64,000 nucleotides of DNA, taken from the NCBI GenBank assembly GCA_965202585.1, contig OZ241832.1:34162001-34226000 (forward strand), read 5' to 3'. Positions 21,001 through 33,000 of the stretch are shown here, piece after piece (position 1 is the stretch's first letter; each line of letters starts with the position of its first letter). Origin of the DNA: Thalia democratica (taxonomy: Eukaryota). Made by a program: the position numbers.

Positions 21001-24000
21001 GTTTAACTTACACCATTTTATTATATTTCAGGTTTTGTTGATTAAATTTTACGCTAGATTTAATATAATAGCATTTTGTTTCACTAAAGCTAAATAAGTT
21101 TGAAATCATTTATATAGAATTTTGATTACGCACAAAGAAAACTATTTAAAGTTTTTGTTTAAAATAAAAAAAATACTGTGTAATTTGTATAGATAAAATA
21201 AGTATTAATTTTTTTAAATTTAGCTAAATTCTCTATGATAGTAATTAAACTTTGATGTAACTGAAAACATTATTAAATTGTTAGGTTCATTTTTTGTTCC
21301 TCTTAATAAATCGTATATATCCATAGGGCAACGCAATAAATAATTTAAAATGGCACATACTAGTCAATTAGGTGTTAACCTACTTTTCTCTATTAAATAA
21401 AATTATTATTATTACAAAGATACTTATGATAAACAAAGCATTTACAAATATGTTACTACAAGTAATTTTTATTCAGAAATGAGAAAGTTTATACTATTTT
21501 TGGCATCATTGAACTAGTATTAAAATAAATTGCTACAACTGACATCAAGTACTTATTAAATTTAATATATTTTGCTGTAACTTTTTCAATATGTGTTTCG
21601 ATATAAAATATAATTTAGCTATGTTTAAACTTGTTTATTACAAAAACTTTGCGAAATACCCATGATAAATATGTTTTAAAAGAACACACTATGTGTAATA
21701 ATTATTTGAAATTAAACCAAAGGACTACTACATCTATAACTAAGATCTTTTAAAATATGGAATAAATTAATTTTTTACATAAAAAAAAGAATTTAAAAAC
21801 TAGTGTTAGATTCTAGATTTTTGAATACTAAGTTACTTGAAATAATACAAAGCTCTTTAACATATAATTATTTAAAAATCTGAAAGTTGTGATGCAAACA
21901 TACTACAAATGTTTTTTTGTCTACTAACTATGTAAGAATTAACAGTCTGAGCTAGGATTCTAGTAAATGAAAGGAAATATAACTTAAAAAAATTAGATAA
22001 AACACTACACAAGTACTTAGAACAAAAGTTAAATCTTAGAGTTTCAAAAGTAAAATACTAATTGTAGACCTTTATAAATATTCTAAACACTTACTTAAAC
22101 ATTTAAAAAAATCATTAGATATTTTTCCATAACTTTGTTGATAAATACAAAAAAAAGAAGCAAGTGCTTTAAAAACACTTTAGTTTTATTTACTGCAACA
22201 CTTTCAACTTTTTTATAAAATTCTATTTCAAATTTAATTAAGTAATTACTTTTAACAAAAGCAGACAATACATAAATGAAAAATGCAAAGTTTGGGACAA
22301 ACTAATGTTTGATCAGTTAACGCGCATTGTTTACAAAATGTAATGAGATACCCTGCATTAATATAATAACCATTGTTTTATTGTAATTTATATTACAGCT
22401 TGTTATTGTGAATTTTACAGCTGCTTTAACCTCTTAATTGTATTACCCTAATAAGATTAAAAAGATTAGCTTTTTAATTAACTTTTTTCACCGTGACTAA
22501 ATAATTGCTACTCTTAAGCTAAATGTTTTATATCTTTAGTAACTATAATATAAACTGTTTTGGTGTACTTTTTAGAGTAAATTAAATTTGAAAAAAATGC
22601 AGTTTTTTATATAAAGTCAATTTACATCAGTAATGTAAAATCAATTGGTTTTTACAAAGTTTTTAAGAAAAATAATTTAAAAATTTCTGAATGAACACAA
22701 CAAATCCATTACTTCATTTTTTATTAAATTGGAAGCGTTTTGGGGCTTAGAAGACACTTTAAAATAACAAATGATTTAAAATACTTTGACATATACTAAC
22801 TAACTCAACCTTTGTTCTTTATTTATTTATATATAAGTTTAAATAAAACAAGCACACTGATAGTTTTTTTATATAAAATACTAAACAGCCTAATATTATA
22901 TTATCGGTATGAAAACATACTAAGTTTTTAATTATCAACTAAAAATCTTAAGTTTTTATTTAAAGTACACTAGTATAATATTAAAAATTAATAATTAAAA
23001 TATTAATTTCATGTTGGTATTTTACAAAAAGATAATTTAATTAAAACCAAATTTAAATGTTGAAATCAAAAATATTTAATCAGCTACAATTTTGTACAGT
23101 AAGATGATCAACAAAAAGGTTTAATGAAATTTCAAATATGAAAAAAGTAAAACAATTTTTGAGGCAAGTAAAACAAAAAGGCCATGGGTTAACAAAAAAA
23201 AAACTTTTGAAACAAACTTAAATAGAAATTACCTAAATAAAAAAAACACTTAATCATTAAGATCAAGATTATTGCTTATGAAACTTGTCGCCTTTGAAAT
23301 AAAATTTTCATCTTTTTCATTTACAAAGTTTTTCTTGTAAGTATCAGCTACAAAATCAGTCCACATTTTTATCATTTCGTCACCGTACTTACTCATTAAT
23401 CTATAAAATTTTGTTTATTTTAAAACATTGTTAGTTTCAACTTGATAGATAAAATAATTCTTTAATCTTTTCTTTTTAGTGTGTAAACGAAAGGAAATAA
23501 ACTAGTTTTTATTTATGTTTTTTAAGTATTAAAAAAATACACAGATAAAAGATCTAAGTTTAACTGTTGCATTTCAATAAACGAGAACTATTTTAAAAAC
23601 AAGTAAAAATAAAGCTGTCGTAGTATTAAAACAATATGTCAATATCGAATTAAAATTAAAATTTGATATTTTTAAACGTAGCTTTAGTAATAGATAAGAC
23701 CACCAGTTAGCAATTTATTACTATCAATTTTTCATTTTACAAACTAAAATTTGACAAAAAAGTGGTTTAGACTAGAGCTTCTTAAAGGGTGGTTTTCAAA
23801 AACATGTTATCGCCCCATTTGGACTACTTCAGCAAGTCGGAGCCAATGTATAGCAAGGGGCGATATCTAGTAAGGCGGCAGCAACAATTTTACACTGGAA
23901 TCTATAGTGGGGTTGTAATTAAAAGTACATAAAAAGGTTTTAAGTACAACTTACCAACGATTTGGAACTTACAAAATACACTAGATATGCTTGGGTTTGG

Positions 24001-30000: not shown

Positions 30001-33000
30001 ATAAAACAAACTAACAGAAGATGAAAACAAAGCTTGTTTAGCCATCAACAAACAAATTCCACTGCTTATTCCCAGCTGGTACTTAACATTTGAACCACTT
30101 GTACATACTTTATAAGCCTTTCTAGTAAATCTGCAACAATTCTGAAAAACTCCAAGTGACATTTTTTTTTGTAAATTAAAAACTGCTCGAAAATATCTAA
30201 ATCATATAAAATTTAAAAATTATTTTAAAATGTACAGAGTTCAAACACATTTCTTATATAACAACTTTCATGAAAACTCCTTAAAAAAGATCACAAAAAA
30301 TTTAAATTTTATGTGTAAAAACTCTAAGAACTATTTACTAGTTAAAATTTTCTATGTGTTTTTCAATAAAAGCAAAATTATTAAAACAATATCATTCTTG
30401 ACTAAAATATATCAATATATTTATTTCATAGCAACATTAGAAATTAATTTAATCAAAAACCTACTATTTTAAACTTAGCCTAAATTAATTGATTAAAAGA
30501 TAAAGATTTAGGTTTCTAAGGAAGCTTACACTTACTTCAGGCTTTTAATTTAAGAACTTTTTAGAAAACAGTAAATAAATAAAGTATTAACAATTTTTTA
30601 TTAAACATACATTTAATTTATTTCAAGCTGTAATAATGTATTACATATTTTTAGAAGTAATTAATTTTTAGTATAACAAGTACTACAACTTAAAACTTCT
30701 ATAAAACTTAAACTACTTAAATTCACTGTAAACAGAAAAGTTGATTGAAAACAATACCTAAGCAGCTTTTTATAAAAAATATCTACATATAAAATTTTAA
30801 AGGTAAATTTTAATTTCAAAATATATTTAAACATAGCTCAATGCTTCCACAATTAATAGAAATCTGTTTTAAAATATAAAAATAATTTCATCTTGTCTAA
30901 AACTCTCATTAGGTCAGCAATTATAAATACTTGCTAAAATGTTGAATAACAAAATTGAGTTATCTAATTTAAATTGTAAAAAAAATACCTATTTTTGTTT
31001 CAAGACAACATTGCCTTTCATTACAACACTTTCATCAACAGTACAAAGCAGTGAGCAAAACACAAACTTTCTCTTGATGCTTTCCACTTTTACATTCACA
31101 CAAACGTTGTCATTGACAAACAAGGGTTTCACAAATACCAGTTCTTGCTTGTAGAGCAGAGAGCCGTGGTGGTTCTTGCCAATAAGACCAGCTACAAAAC
31201 CATTTAGAATTGAGCCATGAACAACCAGTGACTTTTTGGCAAACATTTCTTCTACAAAACTCTCATTGCAGTGAAGCGGATTTGTGTCTCCTGATATTTT
31301 TGCAAAGTTTAAGACATCCCTTGCAGAGAACTTTGTGACCGCTCTTATTTGCTGGTCTATTTTCAATGTGCTGCTGTGTAAACTATTTGATAAGGTTCGA
31401 AACTTTAAAATATTTACTTGTAACACTTTGAATAGCATTATATTAGAAACTTACTAATTAAGTTAAATAATTTTCTGAAAAAATATACATGGTGAGAACC
31501 TTTTGAAGTTGTTAAATTATTTAATAAAAAACTAAATTTTACTGTAAAATAAATTTTTAAATGTACTACTTTTTAGGACACAACAGAGGGGGTAGGGCAC
31601 TTTTTTACAAGCATAAATCATCAGGTTGTCAACCTGTAAAAACATAATTTGAATAGACATTTCTAGGAATATTAGACAGACATTTCTAAAGTTGCATGAA
31701 ATTAACAACATTTAAAACGTAATCTGCATAAAAATATTCTACAGTTGCTCATCACAGCAATCATTAATAGTCAAAACAATAAATTACTCATACAAAAAAT
31801 AAAATCTCTGTAACTGTAAAAACAAAAGAGATGCCTTGTTGGTAACAAGTGTAATATAATATCTGTAATACAAGAAGCCAAAGTCTCTACAGAAATCAAT
31901 AATCATATGCCATTCACTAGTTCAACAAAACACCATTAAAAACAAGACTTTATGAGCACAAACCATCTTTTTTTAAATATACAAGAAAAAAACCTATTAA
32001 CTGCAACTAATAGTAAATATTTTTGCACATGTGTCAAACACTGGGTTTTAATTTTGCCCATTCAATTTAAAAAGTTTTAATAGCTGCCACCAAGCAATAC
32101 AATAGGAATTTGAACGAATATAACATTTAACACAGTGCAAAATAGAAAATTATCAAACAAATTAAGATAAAAGATAAGGCTCAAAACATGTGTAAATTAT
32201 GTTACTTATAAAAAGTAGATACAGCTTCTGAAAATAAAACAAAATACTTAACTGAAAAAATGAGCTAGATATTATAATTAATACTATCGTTACCCTAAAA
32301 AATATTTTTAATTACTAGTAATTTGATATATTAATTCAATTTAATTTATGTGTGTGTTGGAAAATTTGCTTGTTTACTTACATTTTTTACTGAACTTAAT
32401 TTAACTAAGTTTATATACCTTCATTATTTTCTACATTTTATTTTGCACCTTTATTTCAACTGAAAAACTGTGTTTTTGCAATGAAACATTGTTAGGTGAT
32501 AAAGTTTCACTAAACTTCTTGGCAAAATTTAGAAAAAACATTCTTAGATTAATAATTGTTAGCCAGTTGGTTATTTCTAAATTAGAGTTAAGTTCCTTTT
32601 TATTTTAATTTAGAAAAAAAAAGGTAAACTCCTTGATAATTTCAAATTGTATAAGAAATCAAGGTTACTCATGCATGTTAACCAAAACATAAAGCAGCAA
32701 CTTAAGCTTGGGCTCTAATTCTCATCAATACTATCTTACAAATTTTGAATTTAATCATTCACAACAATAGCCAAGCGAATAAATAACTAAATAACTTAGT
32801 ATTAATTATATATAAATTTAAAACGAGCGTGAACTTAGCTTGAGAGCGTTTTTTAGGAACTTTATAAAAATTTCCAAACTTGAGACCCAATTATGTCCTT
32901 ATTTTAATAGCTAATTATAAACTCTTTTTTTTATACTAAAGAATGGTCCTTTGTCTTTAATTTAAGAAAATCCATTAAAATGGGGTTTTGACTTTTTGAA

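Follow-up and report, generated by a model that had tools for sequence, protein, structure and literature searches.

A probably intact gene for a PARL-type, rhomboid-related membrane protein with all active-site positions replaced in Thalia democratica

Rhomboid pseudoproteases, such as the iRhoms and the Derlins, demonstrate that the rhomboid fold has functions besides cutting, and to our knowledge the well-studied animal members of this group all act in the secretory pathway. Here we analyse a stretch of 64,000 nucleotides (nt) from Thalia democratica (assembly GCA_965202585.1, contig OZ241832.1, positions 34,162,001 to 34,226,000), hereafter the window, which has about 25% G+C, does not resemble human DNA and contains no N. 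An earlier inspection of this DNA alone (the sequence-only reading) had proposed that it carries the gene of a catalytically dead relative of PARL, the mitochondrial rhomboid protease. The locus lies at 30162-23250 on the minus strand (all positions are those of the window) and, judged from its sequence, is probably a real and intact gene for a rhomboid-related membrane protein of the PARL type, that is, with one extra helix ahead of a six-helix core (1+6 layout); none of its four active-site positions keeps the original residue.

Inactive rhomboid-like proteins are also reported from mitochondria: TimRhom I and TimRhom II of Trypanosoma brucei are described as subunits of the mitochondrial inner-membrane translocase that are rhomboid-like but inactive (PMC5187411). 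The statement of the sequence-only reading that the known inactive rhomboids belong to the secretory pathway is therefore correct for the iRhoms and Derlins, but incomplete. The TimRhoms are like the Thalia protein in being rhomboid-like and inactive; however, according to their authors they are no closer to PARL or to the derlins than to bacterial rhomboids (PMC5187411), whereas the Thalia protein is an animal protein of the PARL type, the two being compared by description only. With the iRhoms and Derlins the Thalia protein shares descent from rhomboids, lack of the catalytic dyad and apparent retention by selection, and the likely common logic is that clients with transmembrane segments are bound where the bilayer is thinned (PMC12615303). 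They differ in belonging to another branch of the rhomboids and, by inference, to another organelle; moreover, a Pfam scan of P0001, the natural orthologue described below, gave no iRhom or DER1 match, the only match besides Rhomboid being a weak one to DUF3267. In the literature searched, with subscription-only papers and supplements outside its scope, no inactive PARL-type protein was found, nor any report linking Oikopleura with PINK1.

A closer comparison is possible with PARL itself, Drosophila Rho-7 and yeast Pcp1. Homology to these proteins starts at the extra helix near the N-terminus and reaches the YG-E segment at the C-terminus, and the Thalia protein has the same order of hydrophobic segments, no seventh helix at the C-terminus, a basic N-terminus, and the glycines of the fourth and sixth transmembrane segments (TM4 and TM6). 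It is unlike them in having Thr for the nucleophile Ser and Gln for the TM6 His, in having lost the His and Asn of TM2, and in the loop after the extra helix, which is specific to its clade and highly conserved. The closest intact relatives are the tunicate PARLs (Ciona savignyi H2ZDD2, Phallusia mammillata A0A6F9DMJ3, and the database proteins P0008-P0010), which are its neighbours in the best tree (support 95/90) but keep GASG and DHAGH and are 20-30% identical to the dead proteins. Compared with canonical PARLs, proteins of the Thalia type evolve two to four times faster, as measured by branch length.

A script check of the sequence showed that the locus consists of seven open stretches joined by six introns, all six of the GT-AG type and with consistent phases. 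The joined length is 1065 nt, corresponding to 354 codons plus the stop codon TAA (23252-23250). The limits 23250..30162 and the two exons that the sequence-only reading had singled out (25146-25023 and 24523-24307) proved exact, and its uninterrupted frame of about 354 amino acids (aa) agrees with this codon count. The probability of 354 open codons is about 3e-14 at the stop-codon frequency of 8.4% found in sense-strand intron codons; because of this figure, and because the natural protein P0001 is colinear with all the exons, the gene model is more than a product of chance. The exons have a mean G+C content of 37.7%, as opposed to 23.5% for the introns.

The window was searched exon by exon, and P0001 was used as a full-length stand-in for the Thalia protein. 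Exon 6 alone, compared with longer database proteins, gave a single match among 330 candidates, namely P0001, which is 72% identical over this exon. P0001 is a protein of 352 aa from a related species, encoded on a contig of 1213 nt; being barely longer than the coding sequence, this contig would fit a spliced transcript in the species of P0001. By tBLASTn, P0001 is colinear with all seven exons; identity amounts to 278 of 348 aligned residues, and the alignment shows two in-frame gaps and neither a stop nor a frameshift. It also carries the same GGTG and DFPLQIGG motifs as the Thalia protein, and the substitutions are therefore not assembly errors, an eventuality that the sequence-only reading had named as grounds for refutation.

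An exhaustive phmmer search with P0001 against 1.84 billion representatives returned nine matches at E<=1e-3, among which no phylum other than that of the query was represented. Three of the nine (P0002, P0005 and P0006) each cover one exon and are pieces of this gene in close relatives. Five (P0003, P0007 and P0008-P0010, 260-384 aa) are of the full-length type and PARL-like, and all five pass the Pfam Rhomboid profile, with 43-58 bits against a cut-off of 22.6. P0003 (346 aa, E 6.5e-19, about 30% identical, 43 bits) has Val in place of the Ser and Ala in place of the His; P0007 is very divergent and retains both Ser and His; P0008-P0010 show the canonical GASG or GSSG together with DHAxH. 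A further match, P0004 (2198 aa, E 1.6e-18), was rejected as a chance similarity. It is a methyltransferase/glycosyltransferase protein with a 38-residue tandem repeat; in 11 matched stretches, copies of this repeat were 31-39% identical to residues 99-148 of P0001, and the E-value of P0004 is inflated because the similarity is summed across many copies of the repeat. A word-indexed search with a six-protein alignment recovered just two of its own members among 6982 candidates and is uninformative on rarity.

Active-site positions were compared in 20 aligned PARL-type proteins. The nucleophile motif GxSG reads GGTG in the Thalia protein, with the Thr encoded by ACA at 25026-25024, and the TM6 motif DHAxHxGG reads DFPLQIGG, with the Gln encoded by CAA at 24332-24330. 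Both replacements are as the sequence-only reading had described them (GASG to GGTG, and DHAAHLGG to DFPLQIGG). Its third claim, that HxxxN of TM2 has become DxxxS, holds in an ungapped alignment, in which the active-site His and Asn correspond to D (26516-26514) and S (26504-26502), while the gapped MAFFT alignment places Gln at both positions; His and Asn are absent either way. In the whole set the nucleophile column has Ser in 18 of 20 proteins, the exceptions being P0001 (Thr) and P0003 (Val), and the TM6 base column has His in 18 of 20, the exceptions being P0001 (Gln) and P0003 (Ala), so that Ser and His are missing together in the same two proteins. The ungapped TM2 reads N...S in P0001 and E...S in P0003; the Ser at the Asn position, common to the dead proteins, hints at a single ancestral loss. 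All 20 proteins retain the first His of TM2 (codon 26531-26529 in the window), a Ser four residues ahead of GxxG, and the packing glycines of the TM4 GxxG and TM6 GGxxxG motifs (G230, G233, G298 and G302).

What such replacements entail can be appreciated from enzymes already studied. The catalytic residues of human PARL are reported to be S277 and H335, and S277A is its standard dead mutant (PMC9436811). In Escherichia coli GlpG, the S201T mutant is reported to be inactive even in large excess, because the Thr hydroxyl points away from the His and toward H150/N154, which are the positions matching the His and Asn of PARL TM2 (PMC3093617). As predicted from the gene, the Thalia protein would fail every test for an active rhomboid protease, that is, the nucleophile Ser, the TM6 His and the TM2 His/Asn.

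The affinity of the protein to PARL was assessed by profile comparison. A profile of the two dead proteins, P0001 and P0003, matched one of eight named animal PARL-type proteins with 99.5% probability (hhalign, E 3.5e-22, 264 columns), the homology spanning query residues 39-328; together with the YGDE segment at the C-terminus, this bears out the earlier claim that the frame follows PARL. The named relatives of P0009, for which 16 of 29 matches were used (10 without an organism name and three near-duplicates being omitted), were the rhomboid proteases of Ciona savignyi (47% identity) and Phallusia mammillata, followed by the PARLs of Lineus, Tropilaelaps and Mizuhopecten, and then by nematode, fluke and fungal proteins. 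In a protein atlas, whose results are to be taken as leads only, Rhomboid accounted for 29 of the 30 nearest clusters of P0001 and for all 30 of those of P0003, and a PARL-named cluster ranked third and first, respectively. NCBIfam gave no relevant match for P0001, P0003, P0007 or P0009.

Hydropathy, admittedly a crude method, showed a hydrophobic segment at residues 30-46 ahead of TM1 and none after the core, as in the 1+6 layout that is described for organellar rhomboids (PMC12615303). The hydrophobic segments follow in the expected order, TM2 being weak as it is in several PARLs. The first 30 residues contain five K/R and no D/E, and P0001 and P0003 show the same pattern. A mitochondrial nature of the protein is thus suggested by its PARL ancestry, its extra N-terminal hydrophobic segment and its basic first 30 residues.

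The phylogenetic position was studied with a maximum-likelihood tree of 20 rows (P0001, P0003, P0007-P0010 and 14 named proteins) with a fungal outgroup. In the best tree P0001, P0003 and P0007 form a clade (97/93), which is sister to the tunicate PARLs (95/90). Judged from this tree, the source organism, with its very A+T-rich genome, is probably a tunicate. When only one of the three divergent proteins was retained, P0001 and P0003 still joined the tunicate PARLs, with values of 89 and 82 in the Shimodaira-Hasegawa-like approximate likelihood ratio test (SH-aLRT); P0007 alone nested inside the A+T-rich intact subgroup P0008-P0010, in a clade with SH-aLRT 99. An approximately unbiased (AU) test also tolerated a tree in which the two dead proteins are held together (p-AU 0.452). 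The FYMINK/GARP ratio of amino acids is 1.5-1.75 in P0008-P0010 and 1.6-2.25 in the divergent trio, as compared with 1.04-1.16 in Ciona and Phallusia and 0.8-1.16 in the named proteins overall. This common A+T-driven bias fits a single group of species possessing both intact and divergent copies.

Several observations weigh against the reading of the locus as a gene for a PARL-type pseudoprotease. None of the seven window exons, taken singly, matched Pfam Rhomboid, because the pieces are too short and divergent, but P0001 too reached only 14.8 bits (PF01694, cut-off 22.6, E 0.034), with coverage of profile positions 8-137 of 143. No relevant solved structure was retrieved by sequence, whether the query was P0001, the six-protein profile or the named-PARL profile. 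The branches of P0001, P0003 and P0007 are long (1.6-2.1), the tree holds PARL-type proteins and no other rhomboids, and the A+T-driven bias could draw these sequences together in it. Finally, the AU test tolerated two other arrangements, one with the divergent trio outside all canonical animal PARLs (log-likelihood difference 9.25, p 0.269) and one with the trio grouped with P0008-P0010 (p 0.215). The part of the sequence-only reading that called the protein PARL-derived stands as regards PARL-type homology and the best tree beside the tunicate PARLs, while its precise placement is one of those that the AU tests tolerate.

The comparison between the window and P0001 provides information about selection. 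There are 70 amino acid replacements, 55 of which are reachable by a single base change, and none is a stop; under neutrality the probability of this is 0.0014-0.011, varying with mutation bias and event count. The replacements are conservative, with a mean BLOSUM62 score of 0.09 versus -0.40 for random one-step changes, and 141 of 20000 resamplings reached the observed value. They are also unevenly distributed: identity to P0001 is 51/53 (96%) in the loop that joins the extra helix to TM1 (residues 54-106) and 17/20 in the TM6 region, but 15/23 in TM5 and 16/29 in the presequence-like N-terminus, a fast-changing N-terminus being usual for targeting peptides. The frame of P0003 has remained open over 346 aa despite an identity of about 30%. 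These patterns point to purifying selection. Because the active-site residues have been replaced while the TM4 and TM6 glycines remain, the protein would be a pseudoprotease kept by selection and not a decaying copy. The intact gene with a preserved frame that the sequence-only reading had reported is in agreement with all this, given that there is no stop, that the replacements are conservative and that the relatives are open.

To the idea of a decaying pseudogene, or of an artefact of exon stitching or assembly, which the sub-threshold Pfam match might encourage, we can give hardly any credence: a natural protein of 352 aa is colinear with the seven exons and has the same substitutions, with two in-frame gaps only and neither stop nor frameshift, the replacements are conservative, the composition of the exons differs from that of the introns, and a relative at about 30% identity is open over 346 aa. 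It is likewise very unlikely that the protein is still a protease, with Thr as the nucleophile and another residue as the base. Thr does retain a hydroxyl, and the first His of TM2 and the Ser four residues ahead of GxxG are kept in 20 of 20 proteins; on the other hand, the position of the general base is occupied by Gln, the His and Asn of TM2 are gone, the corresponding GlpG mutant is reported to be inactive in large excess (PMC3093617), and P0003, with Val and Ala, is incapable of such chemistry. Nor does the window offer a way of restoring the lost residues, as tBLASTn with 11 intact or divergent PARL-type proteins revealed no hidden exon with GxSG or the TM6 His in its genomic sequence; the alternative exons that the sequence-only reading had named as grounds for refutation were thus not found there. 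An older rhomboid paralogue, branching outside the canonical animal PARLs instead of being a derivative of tunicate age, would be compatible with the AU test, which tolerates a canonical animal PARL clade without the divergent trio (p 0.269). This origin appears improbable in view of the tunicate grouping in the best tree (95/90), of the fact that each divergent protein, when retained singly, falls with the tunicate PARLs (SH-aLRT 89 for P0001, 82 for P0003 and 99 for the clade containing P0007), and of the lack of other phyla among the nine phmmer matches.

The two remaining readings differ in whether an intact PARL exists beside the dead protein. We lean slightly towards a paralogue working alongside an intact PARL, and judge this somewhat likelier than the alternative that a fast-evolving lineage, such as one branching early among the tunicates, has this gene as its sole PARL orthologue and has lost PARL proteolysis, in which case P0007 would be the active orthologue in a sister lineage. 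This alternative, which we regard as possible but doubtful, agrees with the position of the divergent clade as sister to all canonical tunicate PARLs (95/90), as expected from the species tree if the lineage is first-branching; with the fact that the exhaustive search returned no divergent-type copy from the well-sequenced ascidians; and with P0007, which retains Ser and His yet groups with the dead pair (97/93). It also agrees with the absence of a second PARL from the 64-kb window, where the 11 tBLASTn queries matched the same exons only. Against it, the intact P0008-P0010 have the same A+T-driven bias, which would fit species with both copies, and P0007 when alone nests in the intact subgroup, the tree with all six together being tolerated (p-AU 0.215). 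Were the lineage nevertheless without an active PARL, which we consider a tentative scenario at best, its single orthologue would be a conserved non-catalytic protein of the inner membrane; intramembrane processing of clients of the PINK1/PGAM5 type would have been abandoned or taken over by another protease, and a proteolysis-independent function would have been kept through the loop that is 96% conserved.

For the protein, the following mode of action can be proposed. The protein would be imported into mitochondria by means of its basic N-terminus and would reside in the inner membrane in the orientation of PARL. According to predictions, the active site of PARL opens towards the matrix (PMC9436811), and the conserved loop would accordingly lie in the intermembrane space. 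Rhomboid pseudoproteases are reported to retain membrane thinning (PMC12615303), and transmembrane segments might, as with other such proteins, still be bound in the locally thinned bilayer without being cut. Our best guess is that the protein binds or regulates clients or partners of the PARL type without cutting them, and that the loop connecting the extra helix to TM1 would serve as a docking surface; its role could be that of a decoy, a holder or a scaffold, for example beside the PARL-SLP2-YME1L hub (PMC10818064; PMC9436811).

A PARL-derived dead rhomboid under selection would, if confirmed, be a separation-of-function allele of PARL provided by nature. Roles of PARL that are independent of proteolysis could be revealed by it, for instance the binding of clients, the thinning of the membrane or the scaffolding of the SLP2-YME1L hub, and its conserved loop is a candidate surface for interactions. 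Should the lineage have no other PARL, the protein would amount to a natural experiment on mitochondrial quality control without PARL cleavage.

The distribution of these features over the exons, all on the minus strand, is as follows. Exon 1 (30016..30162, 49 codons, 33/49 identical to P0001) starts with the ATG at 30162, ends at the donor GT 30015-30014, and encodes the basic presequence-like N-terminus and the first hydrophobic segment, which is the extra helix of the 1+6 layout. Exon 2 (29673..29780, 36 codons, AG/GT borders) encodes the first portion of the loop that links the extra helix to TM1, where conservation within the protein is highest; the exon is identical to P0001 at 33/36 residues and recognisable in P0003 as well. 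The remainder of this loop, TM1 as a hydrophobic segment and the start of loop L1 are encoded by exon 3 (28738..28918, 60 codons plus 1 base, AG/GT borders, 51/60 identical). TM2 lies in exon 4 (26436..26572, 2 bases plus 45 codons), where 38/44 aligned residues are identical. Exon 5 (25023..25146, 41 codons plus 1 base, 31/41 identical) comprises TM3 and, with GGTG, the beginning of TM4, while exon 6 (24307..24523, 2 bases plus 71 codons plus 2 bases, 51/69 aligned residues identical) comprises TM4, TM5 and TM6 with DFPLQIGG; its G+C content is 51%, as against 27-40% in the remaining six exons. Exon 7 (23250..23400, 1 base plus 49 codons plus the stop, 41/49 identical) opens with the YGDE segment common to the PARLs and continues as a hydrophilic C-terminal tail with no hydrophobic segment.

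Intron 5 contains a G+C-rich hairpin (24872-24970), unique in the window, with 25-nt arms that are 88% complementary and a 49-nt loop. The sense RNA has a folding energy of -34.2 kcal/mol (z -3.4), and none of 200 shuffled sequences folded as well. It had no Rfam match even at E<=1, and neither the window nor the locus gave any match in Rfam and tRNA scans; the hairpin may represent an intronic RNA or a small transposon with inverted repeats.

The next gene upstream, at 30989-31450 and likewise on the minus strand, has a single exon and encodes a MaoC-like dehydratase (Pfam E 2.5e-10); its stop codon lies about 830 bp ahead of the ATG at 30162. The best solved relative of its product is 3-hydroxyacyl-thioester dehydratase 2 (3ir3, E 4.5e-17), which we take to be an enzyme of mitochondrial fatty-acid synthesis; therefore, two genes for likely mitochondrial proteins are arranged head to tail.

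Elsewhere in the window, the open frames are those of an animal and include a C-type lectin, an ML domain, a protein kinase, an acyltransferase and a zinc-finger protein. Two further frames have no Pfam family at E<=0.01, namely a single-exon frame of 302 aa at 41571-42479 on the minus strand, rich in hydrophobic stretches by eye, and a frame of 262 aa at 17311-18099, also on the minus strand, which adjoins a protein-kinase fragment (18492-19079). Four G+C-rich, coding-looking islands (3278-3910, 14232-14831, 48773-49312 and 60756-62120), with long frames on both strands, stand out from the A+T-rich background. Finally, three similar frames, at 9361-9702 and 13118-13450 on the plus strand and at 38519-38800 on the minus strand, share a WVGLTDRGSEG-type motif. 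The first of them, the only one of the three scanned, contains a Pfam C-type lectin domain (E 6.4e-10), and the set looks like a small dispersed family of lectin genes.

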